Below are positions 6,080-63,001 of a stretch of DNA of 64,000 nucleotides, one piece after another. Each line of letters begins with the position of its first letter. The first letter of the stretch is position 1. The translations under genes and the position numbers were made by a program. Location of the stretch: assembly GCA_027083815.1 (NCBI GenBank), contig JALWMR010000038.1:1898-65897 (forward strand), given 5' to 3'. Below the pieces are notes generated by a model. It was not told where the DNA came from. It was given only the letters and a program-made list of their open reading frames with translations, and did no database searches. This stretch comes from Thiotrichaceae bacterium. Lineage in GTDB: Bacteria; Pseudomonadota; Gammaproteobacteria; Thiotrichales; Thiotrichaceae.

Positions 6080-6115
6080 AAAAGTACACCCCCCCACTTT
6101 TTTGCCCTTTTCTTC
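6080..6115 (+). repeat. C-core repeat, short form (copy 1)
   Basis: AAAAGTACACCCCCCCACTTTTTTGCCCTTTTCTTC, starting 15 nt after the gloA stop. Confidence 0.9.
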
Positions 6116-6162
6116 GATTTCCTTTGTATTTCACGCCATTAATTAGGCTACAATAAGCCCCC

Positions 6163-7404
6163 ATGATCAGCCGTTCTTTCCTGTTACTTCAAGGTGTTGC
6201 AACTCCCTTCTTTAGTGAATTGGGAAAGGCGCTCGAAAAATCAGGACATCGCGTTTTGCGTATTAATTTTAGCGGTGGTGATTTATTCTCTGGACGTTAT
6301 TTCTCCATTGGCCTGAAACACATCAATTTTCGTGGAAAACCAGACGAACTGGCCGACTTTTACCAGCAAGTATTTACGCAACATCAGATCACTGACGTGC
6401 TGCTATTTGGCGACACCCGACCGGTTCATCAAGCGGCGATAAAGCATTGCCAGGCCAATAATATTCGCCTTTATGTCTATGAAGAAGGCTATTTGCGCCC
6501 CAACTGGGTGACCCTTGACAGGGGTGGCGTCAATGCCTATTCATCCTTGCCAAAAGACCCAGACTGGTATTTGCACTATGCCGCAAAGCATAAGCTGGGA
6601 AAGCCCAAAAATATCAATGTCGGTGGCAGTTTGGCGATTCGCGCCTGGCATGATATACGCTATCATTTTTCTAATCTATTGCTGCATTATTACTTTCCTT
6701 ATTATGAATCGCATCGCCCTGAGCGCGCCTTAAAAGAATACTGGGGCTGGTTTAAGCGTTTTCCCATGCTTTGGCTTTATTTAAACAAACAATCAAAAAA
6801 GAAAGTCGCTAAGCTGTTAAAAGATGATTCACCCTTTTATCTGCTACCTTTGCAGCTTGATGCTGACTCCCAGATACGGGTTCATTCACCTTTTAAGAAC
6901 CTGACAGAAGTGATTCAAACCACAGTGGCATCCTTTGCCAATCATGCGCCTGCAGAATCCAGACTGGTCATTAAAATTCACCCGCTGGATCCCTGGTTTA
7001 CCGATTTTGCAGCATTAATTAAGCAACAAGCAGAAAAATGGCAGATTGATCCTCAACGGCTGGTTTATCTTGAATCGGGTGATCTCAATGCGCTACTGGA
7101 TAAAGCCAAAGGCACGGTTCTGGTCAATAGCACGGTTGGTACATCAGCACTTGCCAGAGGCTGTCCGGTAATTGCTCTGGGGGAGGCTATTTATGATATG
7201 CCCGAACTTACCTTTCAAGGCTCACTCGATCAATTCTGGTGTGAAGCTCAACCGCCTAATAAAGCCGTATTTGATGCATTCCGATCCTCTATAATAGACT
7301 TATGCCAAATCAACGGCTGTTTTTATTATCGTAAAGGGATTAAGCACGTGGTCAGGGGAAGTCTCGCCTATTTTGAAAAAGAAGCAAGACAGGGCAAGCT
7401 ATGA
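6163..7404 (+). CDS. capsule-polysaccharide-biosynthesis family protein (KpsS/LipB-like)
   Basis: The length and N-terminal pattern (LLLQGVATPFF..LGKAL...GHRVLRINFSGGD) and the C-terminal LVNSTVGTSAL resemble KpsS-type beta-Kdo-transferase family proteins. The stop overlaps the next start (ATGA at 7401-7404). Confidence 0.6.
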   Translation: MISRSFLLLQGVATPFFSELGKALEKSGHRVLRINFSGGDLFSGRYFSIGLKHINFRGKPDELADFYQQVFTQHQITDVLLFGDTRPVHQAAIKHCQANNIRLYVYEEGYLRPNWVTLDRGGVNAYSSLPKDPDWYLHYAAKHKLGKPKNINVGGSLAIRAWHDIRYHFSNLLLHYYFPYYESHRPERALKEYWGWFKRFPMLWLYLNKQSKKKVAKLLKDDSPFYLLPLQLDADSQIRVHSPFKNLTEVIQTTVASFANHAPAESRLVIKIHPLDPWFTDFAALIKQQAEKWQIDPQRLVYLESGDLNALLDKAKGTVLVNSTVGTSALARGCPVIALGEAIYDMPELTFQGSLDQFWCEAQPPNKAVFDAFRSSIIDLCQINGCFYYRKGIKHVVRGSLAYFEKEARQGKL

Positions 7405-8180
7405 GCCAGCCAGAAACAATTTTAATCACGGGCGCGACCGGTAGCATAGGCTCGGCACTGGTTAAACAGTATTCCATGTCCGATCAGCCAAACCATCTAA
7501 TCTTATTGGGCCGCAATCAAAATAAATTGGCGTCCCTTGCAGATGAGTATCAACACCAGAAAACCGAAATAAGCTGCCATAGTATTGATATGCGTGATAG
7601 CAACGCCGTTCAATCGCTGATTGGGTCGATAGACAGGCAAACACCCATTGATCTCATTATTTGCAATGCCGGCGTTTCCAGCAATATTGGCGAAAATGGC
7701 GAAGCAGAATCATGGGATGCTATCTGCCAGGTCATTGATGTTAATCTGATGGGTCTTCTGGCGAGTCTAAACCCCCTCCTTTCTCGTATGCAGCAGCGCA
7801 AACGGGGGCAAATCGCCATAGTCAGTTCATTGGCGGCCTATCGAGGCATGCCTATTACACCGGCTTATTGTGCCAGCAAAGCAGCGGTAAAAGCCTATGG
7901 AGAAGCCTTGCGCGGCTGGCTATCCGCTGATGGTATCAAGGTGAATGTCATCTGTCCGGGCTTTGTTGAATCGAATATGAGCGCCCAGTTTCCCGGCGAC
8001 AAACCTTTAATGATAAGTGCCAATAAAGCCGCAAGAATAATCATTAAAGGGCTTAACAGGAACAAAGCCTGTATCTCTTTTCCTTTTCCGCTCAATACAG
8101 GCATGTGGCTGCTTTCTATCTTGCCGTATGGTGTGGCTGACTGGTTTATGCGACTCTTTTCTTATGGTGCTAAACGCTAA
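7401..8180 (+). CDS. SDR-family oxidoreductase
   Basis: TGATGSIGSAL (TGxxxGxG), NAG, and catalytic YCASKAA (YxxxK). Confidence 0.8.
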   Translation: MSQPETILITGATGSIGSALVKQYSMSDQPNHLILLGRNQNKLASLADEYQHQKTEISCHSIDMRDSNAVQSLIGSIDRQTPIDLIICNAGVSSNIGENGEAESWDAICQVIDVNLMGLLASLNPLLSRMQQRKRGQIAIVSSLAAYRGMPITPAYCASKAAVKAYGEALRGWLSADGIKVNVICPGFVESNMSAQFPGDKPLMISANKAARIIIKGLNRNKACISFPFPLNTGMWLLSILPYGVADWFMRLFSYGAKR

Positions 8181-9736
8181 TGTTTGTTTTTATCAGTGCC
8201 TTGCTGGGAAGTATTTTATTTTCTTTTTTTGTCGAGCGATTTGTAAAACCTGCTCCCCCGCAGCATTGTGTAAAATGCATTATTCTGCAAAGCCTGATTA
8301 TCTCACAATGCTATTTATTGTTAAGCTTAATCGTGCAGCGACCCATTTTTTCAGCATTGGCCATTAGTATTTTTTTGATTATTGTAGTTGCTGTCAATAA
8401 CGCCAAATACAAGGCGCTTAAAGAACCACTGGTATTTTCTGATTTTGCCATGTTTTCACAGGCATTCAAGCACCCGCGCCTGTATTTTCCTTTTCTTGGG
8501 ATGGCACCAGTGATTATTGCGCCCGTTTTAATTATTGGATTGATTATTTTGGTGATAAAACTGGAGCCTGCGCTGCCTTTTGTCTGGCAACGCTTTGTAG
8601 CTACGCTAATTGCGTCTATTTTATTGTTTATAATCATTAAACGTATCGCCCTAAGCCTTGTTATAACCGGTGAACCTGAGAAGGACAATCAAAAACTGGG
8701 GCTTATCAACAGTTTAATCGCTTATTTATTACAGGCCAGTAGGCCAGCACATAAAACAGCACTAAAAGAAGCACTTAATAGCTCTTTTTTTAATGATGGT
8801 GAAGCTAATGATACTCATAAAAGTACACCCCCCCACTTTTTTGCCCTTTTCTCCCAAAAAGAGCAAAACCACAAACCCAATATCACGGTGATACAAAGTG
8901 AATCCTTTTTTGATGCGCGGCGTTTGCACCCCAATATAAAAACCGATTTATTAAGCCACTACGATCGAATAAAAAACGAGTCTATCCTGCATGGCGAGCT
9001 TGAAGTACCCGCCTGGGGAGCCAATACCATGCGAAGCGAGTTTTCCTTCTTAACAGGGCTACCCTCAGATCAATTAGGCCTGTTTCGCTTTTATCCCTAT
9101 CAGTTTTTAAAGGCTCAGAGAATCTTTTCAATTGCCTCTTTTTTAAAAAATCAGGGTTATTATTGCGTGTGTATTCATCCGCACCCGGCATCTTTTTTTG
9201 GACGGGATAAAGTTTTTCCGCAAATGGGTTTTGATGCCTTTATTGATAGTAATGAATTTAAACAGGCAGAAAAATTTGGCCCCTATATTTCGGATAAATC
9301 GGTGACTGAAAAAATACTCGAAGTCACAAAGCAACACATCGATAAACCGCTTTTTATCTTTGCCATTACCATGGAAAATCATGGTCCTTTACATCTTGAA
9401 AAAACACAAGCTGAAGAGCTTAAACAGTTTTACACTAAGCCAATCAACACGGATGCAGACCTGAATGATTTAAGTATTTATCTGCGCCACTTAAGAAATG
9501 CTGATTTAATGATTGAAACATTGACTAACTACTATCGCCAATCAAGCACAGAAACACGCTTGTGCTTTTATGGCGACCATATCCCCAGTCTGCCGGGCAT
9601 CTATCAAATCATGGACTACCGGAATCCTAATTCTGATTATTTTATCTGGTCATCAAAGAACCGATCCACAAAAGACACCGCGAAGAGTTTACCTATTGAA
9701 AATCTGGCACTTGAACTATTATCTAAATCTGTCTGA
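8180..9736 (+). CDS. membrane-anchored sulfatase / LTA-synthase-family (alkaline-phosphatase superfamily) protein
   Basis: The N-terminal 170 aa or so form multiple TM helices. The C-terminal domain has QSESFFD, MENHGP and YGDHIP motifs typical of phosphoglycerol/phosphoethanolamine-transferase-like sulfatase folds. The start overlaps the previous stop (TAATG). The linker contains a copy of the C7-core repeat. Confidence 0.65.
   Translation: MFVFISALLGSILFSFFVERFVKPAPPQHCVKCIILQSLIISQCYLLLSLIVQRPIFSALAISIFLIIVVAVNNAKYKALKEPLVFSDFAMFSQAFKHPRLYFPFLGMAPVIIAPVLIIGLIILVIKLEPALPFVWQRFVATLIASILLFIIIKRIALSLVITGEPEKDNQKLGLINSLIAYLLQASRPAHKTALKEALNSSFFNDGEANDTHKSTPPHFFALFSQKEQNHKPNITVIQSESFFDARRLHPNIKTDLLSHYDRIKNESILHGELEVPAWGANTMRSEFSFLTGLPSDQLGLFRFYPYQFLKAQRIFSIASFLKNQGYYCVCIHPHPASFFGRDKVFPQMGFDAFIDSNEFKQAEKFGPYISDKSVTEKILEVTKQHIDKPLFIFAITMENHGPLHLEKTQAEELKQFYTKPINTDADLNDLSIYLRHLRNADLMIETLTNYYRQSSTETRLCFYGDHIPSLPGIYQIMDYRNPNSDYFIWSSKNRSTKDTAKSLPIENLALELLSKSV
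8819..8853 (+). repeat. C-core repeat, short form (copy 2), inside CDS 8180-9736
   Basis: AAAAGTACACCCCCCCACTTTTTTGCCCTTTTCTC, translated in frame as KSTPPHFFALFS. Confidence 0.9.
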
Positions 9737-10876: not shown

Positions 10877-13546
10877 TTAGTCTTTTGGAGGTTCAGGTGC
10901 TAGCACCTCACGTGTGCCATTTGATTGCACTGCACTCACTACACCTGCTTTCTCCATATCTTCGATCATAGATGCGGCGCGATTGTACCCGACTTTAAGT
11001 CGTCGTTGCACATAAGAGATTGAAGCACGGCGTGACTCTGTGACGATTTGTACCGCTGTATCATAAAGGACGTCGCCTTCTGAATCAGCCAAAGGCTCCA
11101 AGCCCGGAATCGCATCAGATGATCCCGTCTCTTGTGTGACCTCTGTTAAGTACTCAGGTTCCCCTTGCAGTTTTAAATAATTAACTACTTCCTCCACTTC
11201 ACTATCGGCAACAAAGGCACCATGTACGCGTTGTGGCAAGCCTGTACCTGGTGGTAAATAAAGCATATCGCCGTGTCCCAGCAAGTTTTCAGCACCACCT
11301 TGATCAAGTATGGTGCGAGAATCAATCTTGGTTGAAACCTGAAATGCGATACGGGTGGGTATATTGGCTTTAATTAATCCGGTAATTACATCGACAGAAG
11401 GTCGCTGGGTAGCCAGAATCAGGTGAATTCCGGCGGCACGTGCTTTTTGCGCCAAACGGGCAATCAGCTCTTCTACTTTTTTGCCAACAACCATCATCAT
11501 ATCGGCAAATTCATCAATAACGATAACGATGTACGGTAATGGTTCTAAAATACTGGGACGCACATCCAGTGATGAAGTCGGGTCAAAGGTTGGGTCTACT
11601 ATTGGCTGGCCTTTTGCTATCGCTTCTTTAACCTTTTCATTATATCCCGCGATATTGCGAACCTTCATATGCGACATCAAGGCATAGCGTCTTTCCATCT
11701 CGCCCACCGCCCAACGCAACCCATTGGCAGCATCTTTCATATCGGTTACAACAGGCGTAAGCAGGTGCGGAATACCTTCATAAATGCTCAATTCAAGCAT
11801 TTTTGGATCAATTAGAATTAGCTTAACCTCTTCAGGTGTTGCCTTGTAAAGCAGGCTAATCAGCATGGCATTAACACCTACTGATTTACCTGAACCGGTG
11901 GTTCCGGCGATTAACAAGTGTGGCATACGACCCAGGTCAGCAACGGCAGGGTTACCCGAAATCGTTTTACCCAGAACCATGGTTAAGGGTGAGGTAGATT
12001 CCCTAAAGGCTCTAGAATCAAGTATCTCGCTAATGGATACTAAATCACGTTTATCATTCGGTACTTCAACGCCAATAGTTGTTTTACCAGGAATAACTTC
12101 AACAATGCGGATAGCAGACACACACATGCTACGAGCCATATCCTGTGCCAGGCCACTAATTTTACTGACCTTGGTTCCCGGTGGTAGCAATAGTTCAAAA
12201 CGGGTAATAATCGGGCCTGGATAATAGCTGTCTATCTGTACTCCACGTACACCAAAGTGCTCTAATGTTTCAACAATATTTCTGGCATGTACCTCAAGCT
12301 GTTCCTTTGAAAAATGCCCCTGATTAACGGGTGGAGGATTTAACAAACTAACTGGCGGTAAAGTAATGGCCTTATCCAGTGAAACAGTTGGTGCAGTGGC
12401 TGGTTGTTTGGTGTTGCTAGTGCTGGATTTGGCTGTCGCTTTCTTTCTACCTTGCTGTTGTCCCGGCTTTGATGACTTTTTGGCCGGTCGCTTAGAAGTT
12501 ATAACATCATCAAGTCCATTGACTGGAATATTTTGTTCCTCATAAGATACCTCATCTGCAACTAAGGATCCACGATTGTGGTCCGTTGTAACATCACTCA
12601 TATAATCGGGCACACCCAATACCGGCTCCTGGCGTGTCACATTGGTATCAGGCTGTGTTTCAGATGAAAAGCCTATTAAAGGATCCATCAAAGGGTCATG
12701 CAACGGTTTAAAACTTTCTTCTGCAGTGGACTTCTTCCACATAAGAAGTCCAGACAAACCAGCTGTTACTGCTCCGAGCATCGAGCCTGAGGAGCCGTTA
12801 CTACTTTGATGCTGATTGTTATCAGGTAATTCTGGTGCTGCGCTTGATGTAACACCAGCACCCTCATAAGATTCCTTTGGCATTGAGCTGGCAGAGCCAA
12901 ACAGTTCAATCGTTGAGAGAATTGTTTCACCAATTTTGTCTATCAATTTAAGCCATTGAATGTCGGCAAACAGGGTAATGCCCGCAATAAAGGCAGAAAA
13001 CAGGATCATGGTCGCGCCAATATCACCAAATAGTTTGACAAAACTTTTGGCAATGCCAAGCCCTAGTAAACCACCCGCCCGATAAACCAGAGAGCTTTCG
13101 GGCCATAATAATGTTGCTAATCCACAACCAGCAATCAACGCAAGAAAAACACCAAATACGGTAATACCCAGATTGATTCCATTGTTTTTATCTTTGCCTG
13201 AACGAAATAATAAAAAAGCAGATACCAGAAATATAATAGGTATCAAATAAGCAATATATCCGAGAAAACCAAACAGCACATCAGCCAGATAAGCACCTGC
13301 ACTCCCCGCCTTGTTTTGTATCACCGCGTTATTGTCGTGATGAAACAAGCCAGGATCAGCCGGGTTGTACGTTAGCAGCGCCAGCAATACCACTGCAGTA
13401 ATACACGACAGTATAAAAATACTGGTCTGTTTTAGACTGCCTTTCTTTTGCGAGTTTAAGGCGACTTTTTCAACCTGGGTTGATGAAGTAGATGATTTAA
13501 CCGAAGCAGACTTGCCAGTCTTTCTGGTTTTGTTCGTAGCAGCCAA
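10877..13546 (-). CDS. ftsK: DNA translocase FtsK
   Basis: N-terminal TM helices, a long Pro/Gln/Ser linker, motor domain with GTTGSGKS, and a C-terminal gamma domain ([24 protein letters not shown]). The annotated start is TTG, so the exact start is uncertain. Confidence 0.95.
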
Positions 13547-13850
13547 TGTAATTCCCCTTTCCTTTTGGGTGATTCACGACACAACCCTTTGACCATGCTC
13601 TGTGGCCTCTGTGGTATAGTAACCTCGCATCATAGCTAGCCCAGCCAGACAGCGTAGTTACATAAGTTGCAGTAGTGATATCTATCCTTGAGAAAATAAA
13701 TTATTTATTAATAATATTAATTTTTGTATAAGCCCTTATACAGTCATGAGTATACCGCTTTTTAGCAGAATAATGCAATATACTTACTCGTTAAGCTTTA
13801 CCTTAGACACAACATTATTTAGCATGTGTTAATTGCTTATAACGCTATAA

Positions 13851-14834
<984 letters not shown>

Positions 14835-14849
14835 ACTATATTAATAGAC

Positions 14850-15608
14850 ATGACTCAGGCCAAATCCTCACTAATACTATTAGATCCTCATGCTAGTGAT
14901 GAGCCATTTCCCCCGGTGGAAATGGCGTGGGATGAGCCTAATGGCCTGCTCGCTTTTGGTGGCTGCCTCTCCCCTACCCGGCTGATTAATGCCTATAAAT
15001 CGGGTGTCTTCCCCTGGTATAATCCCGATGAACCCATCTATTGGTGGAGCCCTGATCCACGTGCGGTACTTTTCCCCAATAAAATACGCATAAGCCGCAG
15101 CTTGCGTAAATCAATTCGCAATAAAGGCTATACCATTAGCTTTGACCAGGCTTTTAGCGAAGTTGTGAAATCTTGTGCCTCACCCCGCATGGATCATGGT
15201 GGCACATGGATCACCAATGAAATGTTTCTCGCTTATCAGAAGCTACATAAATTAGGCATTGCTCATAGCGTTGAGGTATGGAATAAACAAGGTGAATTAG
15301 TAGGCGGCTTATACGGCGTTGTAACTGGCGGTGTTTTTAGTGGTGAATCTATGTTCAGTAAAGAGCGGGATACATCTAAAATCGCCTTTATTGCGTTAGC
15401 CTGGCACATGCAGCACTGGGGATTTTCGCTGATTGACTGTCAAATCGAGAACTCTCATCTAATGAGCATGGGTGCCGAGAATATTCCACGAAAACAGTAC
15501 TTGAGTATCCTGAAAACCTGCCGTGAATTCAGGCACGATAACTGGGAGTTTGATCCAGATTCTGACTTATCCCACTGGAAGCCAGAACTAAGCCCAAAAC
15601 TAAGCTAA
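14850..15608 (+). CDS. aat: leucyl/phenylalanyl-tRNA--protein transferase
   Basis: GLLAFGG...L..AY..GVFPWY...PIYWWSPDPR...GGLYGV..G..FSGESMFS is the Aat pattern. Confidence 0.9.
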   Translation: MTQAKSSLILLDPHASDEPFPPVEMAWDEPNGLLAFGGCLSPTRLINAYKSGVFPWYNPDEPIYWWSPDPRAVLFPNKIRISRSLRKSIRNKGYTISFDQAFSEVVKSCASPRMDHGGTWITNEMFLAYQKLHKLGIAHSVEVWNKQGELVGGLYGVVTGGVFSGESMFSKERDTSKIAFIALAWHMQHWGFSLIDCQIENSHLMSMGAENIPRKQYLSILKTCREFRHDNWEFDPDSDLSHWKPELSPKLS

Positions 15609-15649
15609 ATTGCCCATTAAGCTTATCAAAAATGTAAAATTTAGACGTA

Positions 15650-15684
15650 TAAAGTACACCCCCCTACTTTTTATGCGTTTTCTC
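15650..15684 (+). repeat. C-core repeat, short form (copy 3), overlapping the tsaB 3-prime end
   Basis: TAAAGTACACCCCCCTACTTTTTATGCGTTTTCTC. Confidence 0.9.
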
Positions 15685-16384
15685 GTTGTTTCGTTTTTAA
15701 GGCCACATTATCACGAATATAAACAGGCTGCGCATCCTCAGGTGCTAGCGTCAATCCTGCTATAAGCTTCGGTAGAGCTAGCTGAGCAATGGCTGCAGCA
15801 CTGGGCAGTTGATCAGGAACAAGCTTGATTTTATCTTTACTCTCTGGGGTAAGTAACTGATCTTTATAAGCTTGCCAGCCTATTCCTGTGGCGATTAGAG
15901 TCTCAGCATTATCAAACTGTTTAAGTTCTTCCAGCATGTGTGCGGGTTTACCAACACGCTCATCGCCAATCCTGTCAAGTAGACCAGCGGCATTTTTTTC
16001 AAAGCTGGCCCAATAGACTTCGCCCATGCGCGCATCCAGTGCAGCAATGACTTTCTGCCCCACTTCAGTCTGATGCTGAATTTGCCAGGCAAGGGCTTCC
16101 AACGTCGATACGGCAATGACTGGCTTATCAATTGACAAGGCCACACCTTGTGCTACACCAGTGGCTATGCGCAAGCCCGTAAAAGCACCTGGGCCACGGC
16201 CAAAGGCTATGGCATCAATATCATTTAATGGGCAATTCGCTTCCGCAAGCAATTCTTCCATCATCGGTAGAATCAATCTGGTGTGTTCACGTGGGGCAAG
16301 CTCGAAACGACTGATTATTTGATCGTCTAAAAGTAAGGCGGCCGAGCAGGCTTCAGTGGATGTTTCAATAGCAAGTATTTTCAT
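15671..16384 (-). CDS. tsaB: tRNA t6A37 biosynthesis protein TsaB
   Basis: MKILAIETSTEACSAAL...AFGRGPGAFTGLRI pattern. The start overlaps the helicase stop (ATGA). The last 4 codons and the stop lie inside a repeat copy. Confidence 0.85.
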   Translation of the reverse strand: MKILAIETSTEACSAALLLDDQIISRFELAPREHTRLILPMMEELLAEANCPLNDIDAIAFGRGPGAFTGLRIATGVAQGVALSIDKPVIAVSTLEALAWQIQHQTEVGQKVIAALDARMGEVYWASFEKNAAGLLDRIGDERVGKPAHMLEELKQFDNAETLIATGIGWQAYKDQLLTPESKDKIKLVPDQLPSAAAIAQLALPKLIAGLTLAPEDAQPVYIRDNVALKTKQRENA

Positions 16385-18348
16385 TTATCTGATTTCTGTT
16401 TTGAGGCTTGTTGCTTATTTTTCAGGATTTCAAAAAAACGTTGTACCACATCCAGTTTGCTGGTTCGCGGCACACGTGGCAGGCTATCTAAAAAGGTTTT
16501 ACCATAGGATTTACTGCGCAAGCGTGGATCACAGATCATTAACACACCTTTATCATTATCATCCCTAATCAAGCGCCCTACTCCCTGTTTAAGTGCAATC
16601 ACCGCTTGTGGCAGCTGATATTCTCCAAAGGGATTACCGCCACTTTCACGGATTGATTTAATGCGCGCTTCCAGCACCGGATCACCCGGTGATGCGAAAG
16701 GTAACTTATCAATAATCACACAGCTAAGGGATTCGCCACGCACATCAACACCCTCCCAAAAACTGCTAGTTCCCATTAATACGGCATTTCCCAGCTTTCT
16801 GAATTGCTTAATCATATCGGCTTGCGAAGAATCGCCCTGAACCAAAATAGGATAATCAATTTCATCTTTTAATAATGCAGCCGCCTCATTAAGGGCACGG
16901 TAGCTGGTAAACAACATAAAGGTTCGCCCTTCACAGGCCTTAATCACCGGCACAGAAGCATCTACTACAGCGGGTACATAATCGGCATGTTGTGGTTCAG
17001 GCATCCCGGGAGGCGCATAGAGCAGTGCGTTGTGCCAATAATCAAAAGGGCTATCAAGTAATAACTCTTTGGGCGCCTCCATACCAATACGACAGGTAAA
17101 ATGGTCGAAAGACTGCCCAACGGCTAGCGTTGCCGAGGTTAATACCCAGGCACAGGGCCAGCTTTCAAGGTGTTTTTTAAAGGGTTCTGAAATATCCAGA
17201 GGTGTTGATACCAGTGAAAAAGACTGGGTATAGGTTTCATACCACTGAACCGTGCCATTTTTTGGATTATTAAAGTTATTGAGCTTTTGGCTTTGTAATT
17301 GCATACGCTCATAACAGGATTCCAGACCCTTACCACGCTCTGAAGCAATATTAAGATGAACCAATAAGTCATCCATAATCTTTTCGAGGTTTTGTATCTC
17401 ATTCTTAATAGCCGGTTTTGATTTAACCTTATGCCAGGGCTCACGTAAGCCCGGCTTATCCAGCGTTAGACGTAAATCTTTAATACATTTTTCAAATATG
17501 CCCAGCAGTTTGCGCAAATCAGGCATATCAGCAGCATCTGCCAACGCCTCTACCTCAGTATCCCGCGCTAATTCAAGCAGTTGACGCGAACTTAGCGTTT
17601 CACTAAAAAAGGTCGATGCAATTTCAGGCAGTTGGTGCGCTTCATCCAGAATCACCGCATTGGCACTGGGCAAAAGCTCACCAAAGCCTTCTTCTTTTAA
17701 GGCCAGGTCGGCAAAAAAGAGATGATGGTTGACCACCACAACATCAGCTTCTTGCGCCTCACGGCGGGCTTTGGCTACAAAACAGGTATCATATTCAGGG
17801 CATTCAGAACCCAGACAATTATCGGCGGTAGAGGTAACATGTTGCCAGATTTCGGCATCGCGGGGCACATTATTAAGCTCGGAGATATCACCCGCATAAG
17901 TCAGTGTTTCCCAATCAGCGATACGTTGTAGATAAGTCAGTGAACGCCGGTCATCAAACCGTCCTTCCGATTGAGCGCGGTGCAAGCGGTAGGTGCAAAG
18001 ATAATTGGCACGCCCTTTTAACAAGGCAATCTGTGTATCTGTTTTGAGAGCATCTCTGACCAGCGGCAGGTCTTTTGCAAACAGCTGATCTTGCAAGGTT
18101 TTGGTTCCGGTAGAGACAATAACCCGTCCTCCCGAAGCCAGTGCAGGAACCAGATAGGCAAAGGTTTTCCCCACACCGGTGCCTGCTTCAATGACGGCTG
18201 CAGAGTGATTGCTTAAAGCCTCACCTACGGCATAGAGCATCTCCTGTTGTTGCTGCCTGACTTGAAAGCCTGATATGGCCTGCGCCAATGGGCCATCTTC
18301 GCTTAATAAGCCTTGCCAGTCATTATGAGAGCTAAAATTGTTATCCAT
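16381..18348 (-). CDS. ATP-dependent DNA helicase, DinG/YoaA (XPD-like, Fe-S) family
   Basis: Walker A AGTGVGKT, DEAH box (ILDEAHQL), and Cys cluster C..C(LGSEC)PEYDTC typical of the Fe-S domain. The 655 aa length fits a YoaA-like protein. Confidence 0.85.
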   Translation of the reverse strand: MDNNFSSHNDWQGLLSEDGPLAQAISGFQVRQQQQEMLYAVGEALSNHSAAVIEAGTGVGKTFAYLVPALASGGRVIVSTGTKTLQDQLFAKDLPLVRDALKTDTQIALLKGRANYLCTYRLHRAQSEGRFDDRRSLTYLQRIADWETLTYAGDISELNNVPRDAEIWQHVTSTADNCLGSECPEYDTCFVAKARREAQEADVVVVNHHLFFADLALKEEGFGELLPSANAVILDEAHQLPEIASTFFSETLSSRQLLELARDTEVEALADAADMPDLRKLLGIFEKCIKDLRLTLDKPGLREPWHKVKSKPAIKNEIQNLEKIMDDLLVHLNIASERGKGLESCYERMQLQSQKLNNFNNPKNGTVQWYETYTQSFSLVSTPLDISEPFKKHLESWPCAWVLTSATLAVGQSFDHFTCRIGMEAPKELLLDSPFDYWHNALLYAPPGMPEPQHADYVPAVVDASVPVIKACEGRTFMLFTSYRALNEAAALLKDEIDYPILVQGDSSQADMIKQFRKLGNAVLMGTSSFWEGVDVRGESLSCVIIDKLPFASPGDPVLEARIKSIRESGGNPFGEYQLPQAVIALKQGVGRLIRDDNDKGVLMICDPRLRSKSYGKTFLDSLPRVPRTSKLDVVQRFFEILKNKQQASKQKSDK

Positions 18349-18392
18349 TAATCTATTATTTCACAAGGCAACAAAAAAAATGAGCCGCATCA

Positions 18393-18428
18393 GGAGAAAA
18401 AGGCAAAAAAGGTGGGGGGTGTACTTTT
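18393..18428 (-). repeat. C-core repeat, short form (copy 4)
   Basis: Top strand GGAGAAAAAGGCAAAAAAGGTGGGGGGTGTACTTTT. Confidence 0.9.
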
Positions 18429-18453
18429 TTAGATATAAATTGAAACAAAGTCC

Positions 18454-19254
18454 CTATGGATTAAGCTTAAAGTAGTTTAAAGCTTCTTTAACAACGACTG
18501 TATCACCTGAGCGTTCTCCAGCTTTTTTAACTAATGCCCAGTTTTTGGCAATCAAATCCGAATCACTTGAGTAACGTATTGATTTTTTGGCCATTGTGAT
18601 GGCTTGTTGATAACTAGACTGGTCATAATGTGCCTGTGCTAACAAGTGCCATAGTTCGGGGTTTTGCGCTTCTATTCGCAAGCCTCGTTCGAGACTACTT
18701 ATAGCGGATTGTGAGTTACCAATGGCAAGATCGGCTCGTGCCTTGATCATTAGTGTCTTGATTGCGGGTGAAGTAACGTGTTGTTTGGCTTTAGGTGTTT
18801 TAACGGTTGATATAATCGTGCCGCTTTTGACTGCCCCTTCTGGAACAGATGCATAAGGGTCAATATCAACGGTTGCTTCTTTTTGCGCTCTTTGTATCAG
18901 CTCTTCTTTGGATAATACTGCAGCAACTTCTTTTTGCGTGATAACCGGTTCAGCCGGTTTATCTACCGAATATTTTTTAACCTGTGGCTGATAGCCCCGA
19001 GATTTTATAGCCGTGTTTCTCTTTCCCACCTTTCCAGCAGATGGTGTCTGGCTGCGAATAACCGGACGTGATATTTCAGGAATAGCCGGAATACTACGCG
19101 CCTGTCGATCACTCACGCCATAGCCACTTGAACAACCACCAAGAATCACACTAGACGCTAGCAGAATACCAAATAATAACTGAGACAAAAACAGAGCTTC
19201 CTTATTCTTGCTGATTATTCTACTTTCCATAAATGAATCTAATTTTTGTTGCAT
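18454..19254 (-). CDS. TPR lipoprotein encoded immediately downstream of mrcB (LpoP-like candidate PBP1B activator)
   Basis: Lipobox ILGGC, a long low-complexity linker, and a C-terminal TPR-like helical repeat region (AIGNSQSAISSLERGLRIEAQNPELWHLLAQAHYDQSSYQQAI). It starts 6 nt after the mrcB stop. Confidence 0.55.
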   Translation of the reverse strand: MQQKLDSFMESRIISKNKEALFLSQLLFGILLASSVILGGCSSGYGVSDRQARSIPAIPEISRPVIRSQTPSAGKVGKRNTAIKSRGYQPQVKKYSVDKPAEPVITQKEVAAVLSKEELIQRAQKEATVDIDPYASVPEGAVKSGTIISTVKTPKAKQHVTSPAIKTLMIKARADLAIGNSQSAISSLERGLRIEAQNPELWHLLAQAHYDQSSYQQAITMAKKSIRYSSDSDLIAKNWALVKKAGERSGDTVVVKEALNYFKLNP

Positions 19255-19260
19255 CTGATT

Positions 19261-24042: not shown

Positions 24043-24188
24043 TAGCAGACTGTTGAATTTCTACTTAGACGGCACGATACTGCGTTAAAATAGACCTCGA
24101 AATGCTCATTTACTACAAGTAAACTGCGCTTTTTCGGTCGATTTCGCCTTGTCTCGCACTCGCCTAAGCGAATTTCAACAACCTGCTA
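24043..24188. mobile_element. 146-bp element with imperfect 19-bp terminal inverted repeats (MITE-like)
   Basis: The left end is TAGCAGACTGTTGAATTTC. The right end GAATTTCAACAACCTGCTA reverse-complements to TAGCAGGTTGTTGAAATTC, a 16/19 match. The interior contains the TTGTCTCGC...CGCCTAAGC box shared with the other repeat classes. Single copy in the window. Confidence 0.45.
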
Positions 24189-24191
24189 GAA

Positions 24192-24218
24192 AGCCGCCGG
24201 CTTTGGGTGGCTTTTTTA
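24192..24218 (+). terminator. intrinsic terminator
   Basis: AGCCGCC-GGCTTTG-GGTGGCT (one G-U pair) followed by TTTTTATTT. Confidence 0.6.
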
Positions 24219-24226
24219 TTTAATTA

Positions 24227-24259
24227 ACGTACACCCCCCACCTTTTTATGCGTTTTCTC
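24227..24259 (+). repeat. C-core repeat, short form (copy 5)
   Basis: AACGTACACCCCCCACCTTTTTATGCGTTTTCTC, ending 2 nt before the lpxC stop codon. Confidence 0.9.
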
Positions 24260-24261
24260 AG

Positions 24262-27363: not shown

Positions 27364-27388
27364 ACTTGAGCTAAACGGTGTTTAAAGC

Positions 27389-27494
27389 GAGAAAAGTCCA
27401 GGCCGAGCTCATAGCGAGACAATGTTGGCGCACAGCGACGACTACCCGTAGGGTGCGTTTACAAACCGCATAAAAAGGTGGGGGGTGTACTTTT
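27389..27494 (-). repeat. C-core repeat, long form of about 105 bp (copy 6)
   Basis: Top strand GAGAAAAGTCCAGGCCGAGCTCATAGCGAGACAATGTTGGCGCACAGCGACGACTACCCGTAGGGTGCGTTTACAAACCGCATAAAAAGGTGGGGGGTGTACTTTT. Confidence 0.9.
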
Positions 27495-37914: not shown

Positions 37915-38346
37915 ATGGCGAACAAAAAGCGAACATTTATTATTTTTAAAGGTGCCTTTAATAAAGCGCTAAAAATGCCTCTTTACTGCAGCAAGGTCGA
38001 AGCAGGGTTTGCCTCACCTGCCGATGATTTTGTGGAGGAATTTCTTGATCTTAATGATTTGCTGGTTAAGCGCAAAGAAGCAACATTTTTTGTACGCGTT
38101 GCAGGCTACTCAATGATTGATGCCGGTATCCAGCCTGATGATATTCTCATTGTGGATCGTTCTCTGGAGGCTAAACACGGTAAGATTATCATTGCAGTTA
38201 TTGATGGCGAGGTCACCGTTAAACGCCTTTTTAAACAAGGCGGCAGAGTTCTTCTCAAGGCTGAAAACAAGCGCTATAAAGATATTCCGGTTAATGGCCC
38301 CCTGCACGTTTGGGGAGTGGTCACCTCAATTATCCATCAAGTATAA
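37915..38346 (+). CDS. umuD: translesion DNA polymerase V autoproteolytic subunit (LexA/S24 peptidase fold)
   Basis: VEAGFASPADD cleavage region (Ala-Gly), GYSM catalytic Ser, VKRL catalytic Lys. There is an alternative in-frame start at 37975 (MPLYCSKVEAGF). Confidence 0.85.
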   Translation: MANKKRTFIIFKGAFNKALKMPLYCSKVEAGFASPADDFVEEFLDLNDLLVKRKEATFFVRVAGYSMIDAGIQPDDILIVDRSLEAKHGKIIIAVIDGEVTVKRLFKQGGRVLLKAENKRYKDIPVNGPLHVWGVVTSIIHQV

Positions 38347-38355
38347 GCATAAGCC

Positions 38356-39800: not shown

Positions 39801-39924
39801 AAAAAGTACACCCCCCACCTTTTTTACGCTTTTCTCCTATCCTTGAACAAATGCTGGAATGTAGCGCCGACATGCTCAAAAGGATGCTTTACAAAATGCC
39901 CAAAAAGGTGGGGGGTGTACTTTT
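39801..39924. repeat. inverted pair of C-core repeats (copy 9, composite of about 124 bp)
   Basis: The left arm AAAAAGTACACCCCCCACCTTTTTTACGCTTTTCTCC (39801-39837) faces the right arm ...CCCAAAAAGGTGGGGGGTGTACTTTT (to 39924). The inner ATCCTT/AAGGAT extends the palindrome. Confidence 0.9.
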
Positions 39925-39963
39925 ATTTATGACTTGAAAGCTATGACTTGAAAGCAAATATTA

Positions 39964-46577: not shown

Positions 46578-46598
46578 TACCTAAATTAATCCTTATTT

Positions 46599-46694
46599 AA
46601 AAGTACCCCCCTACCTTTTTACCGTTTTAAGGCTTCTTACTTGCATTACGTCGAGAAAACAGCTAAAAAGTGGGGGGGGGGGGGGGGTACTTTT
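46599..46694. repeat. inverted pair of C-core repeats (copy 10) with G16 tract
   Basis: The left arm AAAAGTACCCCCCTACCTTTTTACCGTTTT faces the right arm GAGAAAACAGCTAAAAAGT-G16-TACTTTT. The G run is at 46672-46687. Confidence 0.9.
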
Positions 46695-46808
46695 AATTGA
46701 TATATTTATCCTTTTTTGAACGTTTCCTGACCGGGTTCGCTGACGAATTGCCTGATTTGAACTAATAATAGGCGTGTAACGTTAATTATTTCAAAAAAGG
46801 AGAGTAGC

Positions 46809-52795: not shown

Positions 52796-53089
52796 TTAAA
52801 AATTATAAGGGATATAGAGCGCAATTTTAGGAAACCAGTAAATAATAAAAACGCTCAATAACATTATCAGGGTAAAGGGCCAGACACCTTTAATCACATC
52901 ATCCATTTTTGCCTTGCCAACCGCCTGTATAACAAATAGATTCAAACCCACCGGCGGCGTAATCAGGGCGCATTCAATCATGATGACAAAAATAATCAGC
53001 AAAAACAGCGGAACTGCCAATAAAACAAAATTATCAACGACGCTATATAAGCCCTGTGGGATCATCATGGGGGACAAGCGGAGCGGCAA
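52796..53089 (-). pseudogene. relic of a TRAP transporter large permease (dctM-like), 5-prime truncated and internally deleted
   Basis: The 97 aa join an N-proximal DctM-like motif (IPQGLYSVVDNFVLLAVPLF) directly to the extreme C-terminal motif (ITPPVGLNLFVIQAV...WPFTLIMLL...YIP). A full DctM is about 425 aa. No dctP/dctQ is nearby. Confidence 0.65.
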
Positions 53090-53166
53090 AGAAATGTTCC
53101 TTTAATTTTGTAACCTTTAAACATCCGTAATATATAGCTATTTTATAGCCAAACTGATTAATCAGG

Positions 53167-53207
53167 TCGTCTGGGGTTGTGGAAACAATATCCACAACCC
53201 CAGACGA
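53167..53207. repeat. perfect 17-bp-stem palindrome
   Basis: TCGTCTGGGGTTGTGGA-AACAATA-TCCACAACCCCAGACGA. It is unique in the window and has no flanking T-tract. Confidence 0.9.
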
Positions 53208-53327
53208 TATGAATAAAAACTTTCCTCTTTAAGTCAATCATCCTTAAACAACATGACATAAATATGTCAATTGCCTGCACGCCGCCCATATTAGTTAGCA
53301 AGTCATACACAGCGACATAAAACGACT

Positions 53328-53351
53328 AAAAAACCAGGGGGGTGTACTTTT
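53328..53351 (-). repeat. partial/degenerate C-core repeat (copy 11)
   Basis: Top strand AAAAAACCAGGGGGGTGTACTTTT. It lacks the GAGAAAAG end. Confidence 0.6.
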
Positions 53352-53464
53352 AAATCTCTAATTCTGGAATAAAACTCTTTTTTGTGAAGAATTTAACAGA
53401 AGTGATTTGCTAACAATCCTAAAATAATGACACATTAAATAATAATAAAACGCGGGATAGAGAT

Positions 53465-53912: not shown

Positions 53913-55064
53913 TTAAGCCTTATAAGCTTCCAGATAAGCAAGCACTTCTCTAACTGAACCATTAAAGCAAATACGGCTTTTCTTTTTTTCTATTTGGTAG
54001 TCATACATTGGATCGTAATAATCAACTAAAAGGGTATTTACTACCGGCACGAATCCATCTAACGAGCCCGTACTTAAGCGTTGCCTGATTGCAGCTTCCA
54101 TTTGTGCTTTAGCTTTCTGGTAACGCACGCCACCAAGGCGCTTTTGTATTTTTGCTAAACTTGCTAACAGGTGTTCAGAGAGTTTTATTGCGCCTTGTTC
54201 TTCACCATAGATTTCATCAAAGTGATTTTGTGTGTCTACAATATACTCTTCGATACTAATCTGGTTACGCTCATCTTGAGGTACTTCCAGCTTTACGATG
54301 GGTGCTTTTTGCATAGCTTCAAATAAGGCTTGAGGCACACCCAGAGAACCCACATTTCTGGCTTCATCTTCAATAACAAAAAAGGCTACACCTGCTGCCT
54401 CTTTTTTTAACATGTCGATAGCAAGTGCATTCTCAAAATTGATTTGGCTTGGTTGTGGTGTAGCGGTTGGTCCGAAGGCAGAGCCACGATGATTGGCTAG
54501 ACCTTCCAGGTCAATACTGTTCGTGAGTTGTTTCAGTAAACGGGTTTTGCCTGAGCCGGTTCGCCCGCCCAAAATAACAATGGGTATTGAACTGACGATG
54601 CGCTCAATGCTGCCGATTAAAAAACGTCGCATGGCCTTATAGCCACCGGCAACACGCGGGAAATCAACCCCGGTTTCATCAAACAACCATTGCTGTGATA
54701 TTTGTGAGCGCAATCCTCCTCTAAAACAATAAAGTACACCCCCCACTTTTTGGCTTTTCTCCATAAAGGCAGCCCATGCCTTTTTGCGTTGTTTCTGACC
54801 TTCCTTGCCCAGCAACTCGGCACCTAAGAGAATGGCAGCATCCTGCCCCTGCTCTTTGTATTTAATGCCGACCGCTTCACGCTCCGCATCGCTCATCAGT
54901 GGGATATTGACGCTCATGGGGAATGCACCCTGTTCAAATTCAACGGGTGCGCGCACGTCTAGCAGGGGAATATCATTGATAAACAAAGAAGCTAAATCAT
55001 CTACTTGCGGATGAACGCCTTTGGGTAGCCCTTCAAGACTGTCTATTACTCGTGAGTCAGCCAT
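53913..55064 (-). CDS. selU: tRNA 2-selenouridine synthase
   Basis: N-terminal rhodanese domain (DVRAPVEFEQGAFP, active-site loop CFRGGLRS) and P-loop GGRTGSGKT. Located immediately downstream of selD. Confidence 0.9.
   Translation of the reverse strand: MADSRVIDSLEGLPKGVHPQVDDLASLFINDIPLLDVRAPVEFEQGAFPMSVNIPLMSDAEREAVGIKYKEQGQDAAILLGAELLGKEGQKQRKKAWAAFMEKSQKVGGVLYCFRGGLRSQISQQWLFDETGVDFPRVAGGYKAMRRFLIGSIERIVSSIPIVILGGRTGSGKTRLLKQLTNSIDLEGLANHRGSAFGPTATPQPSQINFENALAIDMLKKEAAGVAFFVIEDEARNVGSLGVPQALFEAMQKAPIVKLEVPQDERNQISIEEYIVDTQNHFDEIYGEEQGAIKLSEHLLASLAKIQKRLGGVRYQKAKAQMEAAIRQRLSTGSLDGFVPVVNTLLVDYYDPMYDYQIEKKKSRICFNGSVREVLAYLEAYKA
54730..54762 (+). repeat. C-core repeat, short form (copy 12), inside the selU CDS
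   Basis: TAAAGTACACCCCCCACTTTTTGGCTTTTCTCC on the top strand. It is read on the minus strand as MEKSQKVGGVLY. Confidence 0.9.
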
Positions 55065-59901: not shown

Positions 59902-59957
59902 AATGACTCCCTATTCTGTTTACCCTCCATTTTCCTCTGTTTTTGGAGACCTTTACC

Positions 59958-59994
59958 GGAGAAAAGGGCAAAAAAGGTGGGGGGTGTACTTTTT
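59958..59994 (-). repeat. C-core repeat, short form (copy 13), between fdx and iscX
   Basis: Top strand GGAGAAAAGGGCAAAAAAGGTGGGGGGTGTACTTTTT. Confidence 0.9.
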
Positions 59995-60159
59995 AACTCT
60001 ATTTAATTAAACCTATACTGCTAATCGTGTTTAGGTGATGTGATTTTGGTCATATGCAAGGCGCTTGAGAGGCCGTAGCGGAATGTACAAACATTACATG
60101 AGCAACGGAAGTCACAAAGCAACTCCGCAGATGGAAAAAAGCGCATTACCTAGAAACGA

Positions 60160-62382: not shown

Positions 62383-62400
62383 GGGTATATTTTACTGAGG

Positions 62401-62940
62401 TTAAAACAATTCGTCTTCGAGTTTTTCTGTTAACTGTTTTGATTCTTGACAGAGGCGTTCGTAAAACTTCATTTTCAGAACATCTTCTTTAGCTGCATCC
62501 AGATTGCCGGCTTCCAGCTTTTCAATAAAATCATCTTTGAGGGCATCCGCTTCACCACTGATTTCCTGTGCTATATCGTCTATTCTTGCCAGTGGGTCGG
62601 TCGCATTCTTAACATCTTCAAGTGCTTCTCGAATTTCCATTTGATGCATTAAAAAAGCACCATCGTGGGTGGTATCCGTTTCATCATCTAAATCAACGCC
62701 CTTGAGTTTTAGCAGGTAACGCGCTCGCAAACGACTGGAAAGTAAGGTTTCATGCGCTTCATTGATAAAGCCTGTGGTTTGCAAGGCCAGGCGCTTTTCT
62801 GCATCATCGCCATTTATAAAACGATCGGGATGATATTGGGCTTGCAACTCACGAAAGCGTTTTTCTAAAGCTGCCTTGTCAATATCAAACTTTTCGGGCA
62901 GACCAAAAATCTCAAAGTAGTTTTGGTTAAAATCAAGCAT
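62401..62940 (-). CDS. hscB: Fe-S protein assembly co-chaperone HscB
   Basis: NYFEIFGLPEKF...QAQYHPDRF J-domain. I chose the start MLDFNQ. The ORF-track extension to 62964 runs toward a repeat copy. Confidence 0.9.
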   Translation of the reverse strand: MLDFNQNYFEIFGLPEKFDIDKAALEKRFRELQAQYHPDRFINGDDAEKRLALQTTGFINEAHETLLSSRLRARYLLKLKGVDLDDETDTTHDGAFLMHQMEIREALEDVKNATDPLARIDDIAQEISGEADALKDDFIEKLEAGNLDAAKEDVLKMKFYERLCQESKQLTEKLEDELF

Positions 62941-62967
62941 TGAATCGTAAAGAGCTGAGCGCAAACA

Positions 62968-63001
62968 GGAGAAAACGCACTAAAAGTGGGGGGGTGTACT
63001 T
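62968..63001 (-). repeat. C-core repeat, short form (copy 14), between iscA and hscB
   Basis: Top strand GGAGAAAACGCACTAAAAGTGGGGGGGTGTACTT. Confidence 0.9.

Follow-up and report, generated by a model that had tools for sequence, protein, structure and literature searches.

A family of C-run/T-run repeats in the window

The DNA analysed here, hereafter the window, is a 64-kb stretch of contig JALWMR010000038.1 from a Thiotrichaceae bacterium (GenBank assembly GCA_027083815.1, positions 1,898 to 65,897). It holds housekeeping genes only and, mostly at their boundaries, the copies of a short dispersed repeat in which a run of cytosines is joined to a run of thymines. The first-pass annotation of this DNA had counted 16 motif copies at 14 loci and considered such a density beyond chance. 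A profile built from the short copies retrieves exactly these 16 copies and 14 loci, with 0 expected by chance. The word AAAGTACACCCCCCAC, searched with up to 2 mismatches in the window and in 100 dinucleotide-preserving shuffles, gave 14 matches in the former and 0 in the latter, and the loci follow one another at one per ~4.4 kb, so that both claims hold. The exact core GTACACCCCCC occurs 15 times; copy 46690 differs from it by one mismatch, and in the degenerate copy 46598 the core is incomplete. The window has 22 runs of at least C6/G6, and 16 of them are members of the family.

The short form measures 33–39 nt and reads (T)A3-6-GTACA-C6-7-(AC/ACC/TAC)-T5-6-(GCCC/ATGCG/…)-TTTTCTC(C). The starts of its two T-tracts, T1 and T2, are 10–11 nt apart, matching the distance of about 11 nt given earlier. 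Three copies are long forms of ~105 nt, in which ~70 nt separate the TTTTCTC tail from the first T-tract. Nine copies lie on the plus strand and seven on the minus strand; there is thus no orientation bias, and the GC skew of the window is monotonic. As had also been anticipated, single units barely fold (−0.9 and −3.0 kcal/mol, z-scores of −0.4 and +0.3), and the stem available to them is an A/T-only AAAAGT(A)/(T)ACTTTT flanking the C-rich loop. All six frames of the GCCC-type short copies, the commonest variant, are free of stop codons. We also asked whether GTAC is avoided because it is a restriction site, and set the idea aside, the observed/expected ratio of 0.88 being unremarkable.

Intergenic DNA makes up 8.1% of the window and accommodates 12 of the 14 loci. 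The earlier placement of the loci at gene boundaries stands for these twelve; the other two are in-frame copies within real genes, namely an LTA-synthase/sulfatase-family gene and selU. Several copies touch stop codons, as in the case of the tsaB stop, located within copy 15649, and of the lpxC stop, which abuts copy 24224.

The leftmost short copy (6080–6116, +; AAAAGTACA-C7-AC-T6-GCCC-TTTTCTTC) is found 14 nt past the glyoxalase stop and 46 nt ahead of the capsule_synth start, and all six of its frames are free of stop codons. It is identical at 34 of 35 positions to the copy at 8818–8854 (+), which lies in frame and in sense within the LTA-synthase/sulfatase-family gene (8180–9736) and encodes KSTPPHFFALFS in the linker preceding the Sulfatase domain. 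Other short copies are located between aat and tsaB (15649–15685, +, containing the tsaB stop codon at 15671–15673), between a 266-aa open reading frame (ORF) and a helicase gene, co-oriented with both (18392–18429, −), and at the end of lpxC (24224–24261, +), 8 nt past a canonical intrinsic terminator (24188–24216). The long form at 27385–27494 (−) consists of core, T1, a ~70-nt module (…CACCCTACGGGTAGTCGTCGCT..GCGCCAACATTGTCTCGC..GCTCGGC…) and the TTTTCTC tail; the other two, at 31571–31675 (+) between a tadA-like gene and guaA and at 33350–33450 (+) between guaA and guaB, are antisense to both of their neighbours. Toward the right end of the window, a degenerate copy (53318–53352, −; C6-TGG-T6…) stands beside a rearrangement junction. 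The copy at 54729–54761 (+) lies antisense and in frame within selU/mnmH (53913–55064, −), where it encodes EKSQKVGGVLY just ahead of the rhodanese Cys loop. The last two short copies, both operon-oriented, are found between fdx and iscX (59957–59995, −; 56 nt ahead of the iscX start) and between iscA and hscB (62967–63004, −; 26 nt ahead of the hscB ATG).

The remaining copies form two inverted pairs with their tails inward. The first (39801–39838, + and 39893–39925, −) separates the convergent umuC and sdaA genes and terminates a segment (36880–39630) with two YchJ-like paralogues in tandem and, after them, a umuD/umuC-like pair (Peptidase_S24 and IMS domains). The second (46598–46628, + and 46652–46695, −) lies between a pfkB-family and a PALP-family gene. 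The C-run of its minus-strand copy is C16 (G16 on the plus strand, 46672–46687) compared to C6-7 elsewhere, which might mean that the tract is prone to slippage or that the assembly is at fault here.

Distribution of the repeat and genome-specific dialects

Homologues of the window proteins are annotated as Cocleimonas or Leucothrix, and identical copies of these proteins are present on ENA metagenome scaffold ERZ23491300 scaffold_155; the window organism, an uncultured marine sulfur bacterium, is a Cocleimonas-like member of the Thiotrichaceae. When one genome per GTDB species was scanned with AAAGTACACCCCCCN{2,4}TTTTT, at least 19 loci were found, and 18 among the matches listed belong to metagenome-assembled genomes of Cocleimonas/Thiotrichaceae. 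A census with the expression C{6,}N0-3TTTT, covering 423 kb of DNA around selU and hscB and from the core scan, gave 94 copies, or ~1 per 4.5 kb, with ~13% called genic, some of these being ORF artefacts. The family is clade-wide. In the following, L-numbers denote fetched loci of related DNA and P-numbers orthologous proteins. Loci L001, L021 and L022 are >99.9% identical to the window and carry no polymorphism information, and the relative L026 has no copy in 25 kb. Among viral contigs, just one carries the motif. A 2.6-kb contig binned as Flavobacteriaceae (L016, JAMONB010000168.1) bears a perfect copy in the TTTTGTACGA dialect and is probably a mis-binned contig of the Cocleimonas clade.

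Each genome has its own dialect, in which prefix, linker and tail all vary. The universal part is limited to CA-C6-9-(N0-3)-T4-7, with a second T-tract usually 10–12 nt on. We encountered the dialects AAAGTACA-C6-7-[CT]AC-T5, …C7-TG-T5-GCCAC-TTTTGTACGA, TGCCA-C7-TG-T5…TTTTGTA, ACCCAT-C7-T7-GCATATTTT, ATGGCA-C8-T6 (or -TAG-T5-AGTATC), AAAGACA-C6-TAC-TTTT-N5-6-TTTTTC and (G/T)ACA-C6-8-TA[CG]-TTTTGCAAGG. The GTAC of the window dialect is replaced in others by GCCA, GGCA, GACA or CCAT before the C-run, and the dialects ATGGCA-C8-T6 and ACCCAT-C7-T7 possess no complementary arms whatever.

Comparison of orthologous sites reveals how these dialects are distributed. The iscA–hscB spacer contains a copy in the window and in 9 relatives, always operon-oriented and each in its own dialect (2 of the 9 are decayed), at a distance from the start codon that ranges from 5 to 70 nt; possible remnants are seen at two further loci, and species with short spacers have no copy. 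At the selU site, the window, L023 and L024 carry an antisense copy in their own dialect just ahead of the rhodanese Cys loop. Likewise, the spacer between the 266-aa ORF and the helicase gene has in L024 a copy (17188, +) in its own dialect, orthologous to window copy 18392, and a long form after the L024 TsaD-family gene (19290–20054) apparently matches the copy at the 3′ end of the window tsaB, as judged from the shared gene order of these unaligned regions. In the LTA-synthase-family gene, the sense peptide (K)STPPHFF varies as MAPPPFF, TTPPIFT and NPPPPFF, and the DNA of L074 and L076 identifies these peptides as local dialects. Finally, the window copies have an identity of 0.82–0.88 to each other, as compared to 0.64–0.74 (0.88 at one site) to their orthologous copies elsewhere. 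The copies are thus stable in position across species and yet rewritten in place to the dialect of their genome; the presence/absence behaviour presumed in the first-pass annotation is not the main dynamic of the family. Orientation does differ in the glyoxalase–capsule_synth spacer between the window and L074/L076: the L074 copy is oriented opposite to window copy 6080, and the L076/L077 copy is decayed.

A sister population (L079), 96.7% identical to the window, provides a closer comparison. The C-run of its selU copy is interrupted by one synonymous change, and ~10 differences within 40 nt are found at copy 53318–53352. Homology between the two populations stops at window position 53284, ~35 nt beyond this copy, and the junction looks like a repeat-associated deletion or recombination. 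On the sister side, dctP and the following gene are present (L079, 1824–3495); the corresponding window region (52796–53464) has only a 97-aa C-terminal DctM remnant.

Copies inside genes

In-frame copies are known in four genes, namely selU, the LTA-synthase/sulfatase-family gene, a gene for an HI0933-like flavoprotein and lpxH. The lpxH segment could be extracted from 117 of the 120 listed clade orthologues. In L019, the antisense motif encodes VEKSIKSGGV; the copy takes the place of 10 codons and the length of the protein is unchanged compared to E. coli LpxH. A 20-aa segment is retained in 101 of the 117 orthologues, 68 of which have K-x-[G/R/W]-G-V peptides, and this short fixed-length state is ancestral at the site. 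The variable residue reflects the linker between C-run and T-run: serine corresponds to AC or TAC, Arg-Trp to ACC, glutamine to TG, isoleucine to TA, leucine to TAG and lysine to the lack of a linker. More distant orthologues have RKAGV, KQAGV or RENDV.

The DNA of three genomes was then compared with their lpxH copies. In L081 (ATGGCA…GTATC), L082 (AAAGACA…TTTTTC) and L019 (AATGACA…TTTTCTAC), the lpxH copy matches the prefix, run length, spacer and second T-tract of its own genome, and this match costs LpxH amino-acid changes (VPL, VSL and VSF). The linker predicted from the peptide held in L081 (Leu, TAG dialect) and failed in L082, in which Arg-Trp predicts ACC and the other copies have TAC; the prefix, C-run, spacer length and second T-tract of the L082 copy did match. 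Since a site of fixed length carries the dialect of each genome, existing copies have been rewritten in place, and re-insertion offers no explanation. A single reading frame shared by the antisense coding copies was considered and dropped, as all three frames occur (KSGGV, KVGGV and KRWGV).

The copies in the other three genes coincide with length changes. Proteins of the P0024 type have a clean 27-nt insert in selU relative to motif-less orthologues, YKSDKNRGG, which is the antisense reading of A-C7-TG-T5-GTCAC-TTTTGTA. The window selU corresponds to this insert minus seven codons and, as a consequence, its tail reads TTTTCTCC through pre-existing GAG AAA codons; the length change at the selU site ranges from +2 to +9 aa. 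In the HI0933-like flavoprotein, loop inserts of +8 to +14 aa in the local dialect are present in four species and absent in three, and the L040 protein shows a gap of ~15 aa against PDB homologues. As for the sulfatase-family gene, six motif-less orthologues are gapped by ~8–12 aa at the motif peptide. All these indel-associated sites are variable loops or linkers, so that a gap test is less decisive here than in the conserved segments examined by Redfield.

[quoted passage not shown] Abundant and intergenic copies, some in inverted pairs and a few in frame within genes, have all been described for REPs and for Rickettsia palindromic elements (RPEs) (PMC3733652), and the abundance of the repeat varies between clades as does that of REP classes (PMC3686654). 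However, the lpxH copy matches its dialect, prefix included, with no change in length, and the copies of one orientation in the iscA–hscB spacer of the window and 9 relatives would demand repeated re-insertion at the same spot; these two observations contradict transposition alone. Moreover, the unit has no palindrome, GTAG or CGTC tag, terminal inverted repeat or target-site duplication, and no RAYT was found by tblastn in 645 kb, which is weak evidence. We therefore regard this explanation as very improbable. Point mutation alone is contradicted in turn by the 27-nt unit inserted in selU and by the 70-nt module inserted at existing copies (see below).

Modules, arrays and inverted pairs

The consensus of the ~70-nt module of the long forms is CACCCTNCGGGTNGTCGTCGCT..GCTCCAACATTGTCTCGC..GCTCGGC. 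At least 5 species have it in conserved form, and each of the 10 cases comes after the first T-tract of an intact or decayed copy. Read antisense, the module encodes SRG[IA]AETMLERSDDDPKG (SRGxAETMLERSDDDPKG), which is found as a 23–29-aa insert at the lpxH copy in 7 orthologues. Given that the short state is ancestral at this site, the long form arose when the module entered a short copy that was already there. A different insert of 8–24 aa (…F[DE]xAQ[QC]P[SY]…) is present on the prefix side of the repeat in the lpxH orthologues P0269, P0321, P0330, P0342 and P0345, which suggests that another module docks on the repeat. In L009, the motif, a 90-nt module and a hairpin whose arms measure 35 bp (CACGAAGAGCACGAAG…) together make up composite units of ~225 bp, repeated in tandem. 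The two arrays of these units (3257–3996 and 4720–5240) flank a Phd/PIN (VapBC-like) toxin–antitoxin pair (4068–4699), a layout that recalls cassette arrays.

The long form does not qualify as a robust structured RNA: its consensus fold is weak (−4 to −9.5 kcal/mol), covarying pairs are few and the z-scores of individual long forms are inconsistent (−3.1 to +1.6). On the other hand, the inverted pairs tested fold with −43 to −51 kcal/mol and z-scores of −5 to −12; the values are −51.4 kcal/mol (z −8.1) for pair 39801/39925 and −43 kcal/mol (z −5) for pair 46598/46695. Of the 8 pairs detected in the clade, 8 have their tails inward and 0 have their heads inward. The resulting shape is that of an A-tract, a long hairpin and a U-tract, and several pairs (39801/39925 and both L025 pairs) are located between convergent genes. 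Judging from these predicted folds, inward-tailed pairs probably serve as bidirectional terminators. Single copies were considered as intrinsic terminators or sigma-70 promoters and rejected, the scans being at chance level with no coincidence with copies; a sigma-54 promoter was rejected for a misfit in spacing, judged by eye on the TGGCAC-containing dialects.

The arrangement of copies relative to genes could alternatively indicate a binding site for a host protein, such as a nucleoid-associated or topology protein or a termination factor, kept by selection at operon boundaries, with the dialects arising by co-evolution. Gyrase and integration host factor bind bacterial interspersed mosaic elements (BIMEs). 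The repeat would fit such a site in occurring about once per transcription-unit-sized interval with even spacing, at gene ends and between convergent genes, and at positions conserved across species; its phased T-tracts imply intrinsic bending as predicted from the motif, and just two strong canonical intrinsic terminators (24188–24216 and 35426–35450) are predicted in positions 1–60000 compared to 14 repeat loci in the window. Nevertheless, it is implausible that several hundred sites would track a drifting specificity by selection and with no drive. Furthermore, no boundary function is evident for the copies that lie, in either orientation, within selU, lpxH and the sulfatase-family gene, some relatives appear to be entirely without the family, and the orientation of the copies with respect to neighbouring genes is weakly biased: among tandem flanking genes of the clade census, it is the same in 31 cases and opposite in 20. 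A host-protein site is, in our opinion, improbable.

The same ratio of 31 to 20 bears on a strand-specific RNA signal, that is, a promoter, a 5′ UTR or translation enhancer, a Rho loading site or a small RNA. Many copies do lie 5–90 nt ahead of the start of a co-oriented gene, e.g., hscB and iscX, and their C-rich, G-poor composition is like that of a Rho utilisation site. Nonetheless, both orientations relative to flanking genes occur, the distance to the start codon varies from 5 to 70 nt, and sense as well as antisense copies are found within genes. The weak structure of the long form, with little covariation, gives no support to such a signal, and sigma-70-like or terminator-like patterns do not coincide with single copies. 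Rfam yielded nothing for the whole window at gathering thresholds, nor did the surroundings of two long forms match anything at E ≤ 5. Of the explanations weighed here, we consider this the least probable. The window also contains no tRNA or tmRNA.

Searches for mobilising enzymes and competence genes

In keeping with the earlier statement that no transposase, integrase or RAYT-like gene is present in the window, Pfam searches of ~59 of its 71 ORFs of at least 60 aa detected no transposase, integrase or Y1 transposase. They detected no competence protein either, the type IV pilus, ComEA, ComEC and DprA included; several of the ORFs have no Pfam hit of any kind, and about a dozen mostly short ones lie outside the scan. 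A RAYT or IS200-type TnpA gave no tblastn match in 645 kb of fetched DNA, which is weak evidence considering that this DNA stems from many genomes. In L081, IS110-family transposase genes (5609–6800; DEDD_Tnp_IS110 and Transposase_20) are located ~170 nt from a decayed copy (6788, −). IS110-type elements target REP-like repeats.

Competence-related genes are present in relatives. An intact ComEC (DUF4131, Competence and Lactamase_B domains) is encoded at 4801–7170 of L026, the relative whose 25 kb are free of the repeat. Close to lpxH, L081 (13288–14277) and L082 (12608–13102) have genes for type IV pilins. L026 also contains a phage-like block (11264–21137; Phage_GPA replication protein, P2-type domains and many small ORFs) directly downstream of selU. 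The literature searched contains nothing on Cocleimonas repeats or on natural transformation in the Thiotrichaceae.

Templated copying between repeats as the favoured interpretation

The contradictions met by transposition alone and by point mutation alone call, together, for a process that copies sequence between copies or into a look-alike site. We tentatively favour a mosaic repeat of the REP/BIME kind, with a putative trans-acting system that copies it and overwrites it in place, and assign to this interpretation a probability of roughly 0.45. It is ranked first because one process would cover units, modules, pairs, arrays and homogenisation. According to this model, the family would consist of short, non-autonomous mosaic repeats, mostly vertically inherited throughout the clade, with a non-palindromic core composed of a prefix, C6-9, 0–3 nt, T4-7, a ~5-nt spacer and a second T-tract. 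New copies would be templated on other copies and old ones refreshed in the same way, through a putative trans-acting enzyme or short-patch conversion system encoded outside the window and recognising the junction between C-run and T-run. The copying event could land as a whole-unit insertion, or could overwrite a look-alike site or an existing copy; in-place overwriting would keep the copies of a genome on one dialect, as in concerted evolution. Existing copies would also act as landing pads for further modules, including the ~70-nt module of the long forms. Copies may be tolerated owing to their location at gene boundaries, to the lack of stop codons in the commonest variant and to changes in C- or T-run length able to restore the frame. 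In addition, copy 53318–53352 adjoins the apparent deletion junction, and a decayed copy adjoins the IS110-family gene of L081; both associations are typical of REP-like repeats as described in the literature (PMC3733652).

Of the mosaic element of REP, BIME or MITE type proposed in the first-pass annotation, it is the architecture that survives, i.e., the inserted module, the tandem arrays and the fixed arrangement of pairs; terminal inverted repeats, target-site duplications and a palindromic unit do not. Several observations weigh against the favoured interpretation. The aligned copies show no terminal inverted repeats and no target-site duplications or flanking direct repeats. A REP unit is an imperfect palindrome of 20–40 bp forming a stem-loop with a 5–13 bp stem and an unpaired GTAG or CGTC tag (PMC3733652), and the single unit of the present family is not a palindrome and has neither tag. 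The lack of a transposase among the scanned window ORFs points in the same direction, as does, weakly, that of a RAYT in the related DNA. The L019 lpxH copy shows a gapless alignment to E. coli and H. influenzae LpxH, and the graded series of its orthologues (RKAGV, KKAGV, KKGGV, KSGGV…) resembles stepwise change in place. In one species the conserved core spans just ~24 nt, with unrelated flanks beyond it, and the window loci are spaced more evenly than random intergenic placement would have them (coefficient of variation 0.44, P = 0.003–0.009). These last features, namely the fixed-length and graded lpxH copies, the ~24-nt core boundary and the even spacing, fit uptake-signal drive at least as well. 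Finally, we know of no demonstrated enzymology for the in-place overwriting of dispersed 30-nt repeats. Even so, with the defining REP features of palindrome and tag lacking, the mosaic interpretation keeps its first rank at the probability given above.

The annotators' second proposal, a DNA uptake signal similar to the uptake signal sequences (USS) of Pasteurellaceae or the DNA uptake sequences (DUS) of Neisseriaceae, accounts for part of these features. A surface receptor of the competence machinery would prefer the core and its phased T-tracts, and biased uptake followed by homologous recombination would act as a molecular drive that shifts look-alike sites toward the favoured sequence; with a drifting receptor preference the copies would follow in each lineage, giving rise to dialects, and the ~70-nt module and composite forms would be separate small elements that target the signal or hitch-hike on it. 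The asymmetric core with two T-tracts whose starts are 10–12 nt apart parallels the Hin- and Apl-type USS (PMC1626085). The consensus is strong, with 15 exact cores versus 1–2 single-mismatch copies, both orientations occur in a window whose GC skew is monotonic, and dialects are found at orthologous sites. USS arise by substitution and not by insertion according to the gap test of Redfield (PMC1626085), and the gapless fixed-length lpxH copy represents this very outcome, as do the graded linker variants among the 101 fixed-length orthologues, with their amino-acid cost. The inverted pairs are shaped like terminator hairpins, as are >90% of paired DUES (bioRxiv 10.1101/2025.10.24.684340). The even spacing, the intact ComEC and type IV pilin genes of relatives and the presence of the motif on a single viral contig are also in line with this proposal, which is the better one for the lpxH graded series, the phased T-tracts, the sharp core edge in one species and the spacing.

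Other observations speak against an uptake signal. Three of the four coding sites coincide with indels, including the clean 27-nt unit insertion in selU; nesting of a module at a fixed position of the motif and tandem composite arrays are known for neither USS nor DUS, and a second, separate element is needed for them. Between related species, the dialects are much further apart than those known for DUS or USS, and the relative bearing ComEC has no copy in 25 kb. The density is ~4-fold under that reported for USS and DUS, approximately one per kb (PMC1626085), and 85–90% of the copies are intergenic, as opposed to 65% of H. influenzae USS located in coding sequence. There is no sign of extra conservation, the C-run of the selU copy being broken in the sister population and copy 53352 diverging faster than its flanks, and natural transformation of Thiotrichaceae is not reported in the literature searched. 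We thus take an uptake signal to be possible and, on balance, unlikely. As of late 2025, uptake sequences had been described for Neisseriaceae and Pasteurellaceae only (bioRxiv 10.1101/2025.10.24.684340). The fuller version of this proposal, a third, independently evolved family of uptake signals and the first outside these two families, in marine Thiotrichaceae (Cocleimonas/Leucothrix), with a rapidly diverging receptor and the ~70-nt mobile module as its parasite, appears doubtful to us.

Comparison with known repeat families

The family favoured here as a mosaic repeat resembles REPs, BIMEs and REPINs (REP doublets) in its unit of 33–39 nt, in its frequency of ~1 per 4.4 kb in the window and in its location between unidirectional and convergent genes. 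It further shares with them inverted doublets, fixed in arrangement, which fold into long hairpins, mosaics and tandem clusters with other modules, species-specific versions, occasional in-frame copies in genes and proximity to IS elements and rearrangement junctions. It differs from REPs and BIMEs in that the unit barely folds, is not a G+C-rich palindrome, carries no GTAG or CGTC tag, and is conserved instead in a C-run joined to a T-run and in a second, phased T-tract; no RAYT was detected in the DNA searched, and the rewriting in place inside coding sequence, with no change in length, likewise sets it apart. MITEs are also short, non-coding and present in many copies, and their long and short forms differ by an internal segment. 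However, they measure 70–300 bp with terminal inverted repeats of 15–30 bp and a target-site duplication, whereas the short form described here has 33–39 nt, neither of these features, and a stable position.

RPEs are comparable as in-frame repeats in functional genes, located in surface loops or linkers and inherited by orthologues. They are, however, palindromic insertions, and the in-gene RPE-1 is longer; the present unit is short and non-palindromic, and its lpxH copy is no insertion. We are aware of no RPE that overwrites an ancestral segment of equal length or tracks a genome-specific dialect. With USS (Hin and Apl) and DUS, the family has in common an asymmetric core with two AT- or T-rich segments about one helical turn apart, a very strong consensus and evenly spaced copies in both orientations; it also shares dialects that are specific to the lineage and stable in position, terminator-like inverted pairs and coding copies that reshape tolerant protein loops. 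Compared to them, the motif is ~3 times longer, ~4-fold sparser and 85–90% intergenic; most of its coding copies are at indels, modules and arrays are nested with it, and its dialects diverge much more between related species.

The unusual and well-documented property of the family is the tracking of the genome's dialect in place inside coding sequence. To our knowledge, such a pattern is known or has been proposed from two processes only, uptake-biased molecular drive and the poorly understood concerted evolution of dispersed repeats. The lpxH peptide mirrors the dialect of its genome (checked on DNA in three genomes, with the linker off in one), and essential genes such as lpxH host copies that are rewritten at an amino-acid cost. 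An uptake signal would mean that one more bacterial order has sequence-specific transformation; otherwise, homogenisation of the REP type can act with no palindrome and inside genes. Drive and copying can be distinguished by direct test, given the many dialects among close relatives, the coding copies with known ancestral state and the cultured Cocleimonas strains. For genome annotation, these repeats yield peptide inserts that look conserved, e.g., KSGGV, STPPHFF and SRGxAETMLERSDDDPKG.

Near the left end of the window, apart from the repeat loci, an alpha/beta-hydrolase ORF (123–638) overlaps a 90-aa ORF with no Pfam hit (620–892), and the two may represent a frameshifted or split gene.

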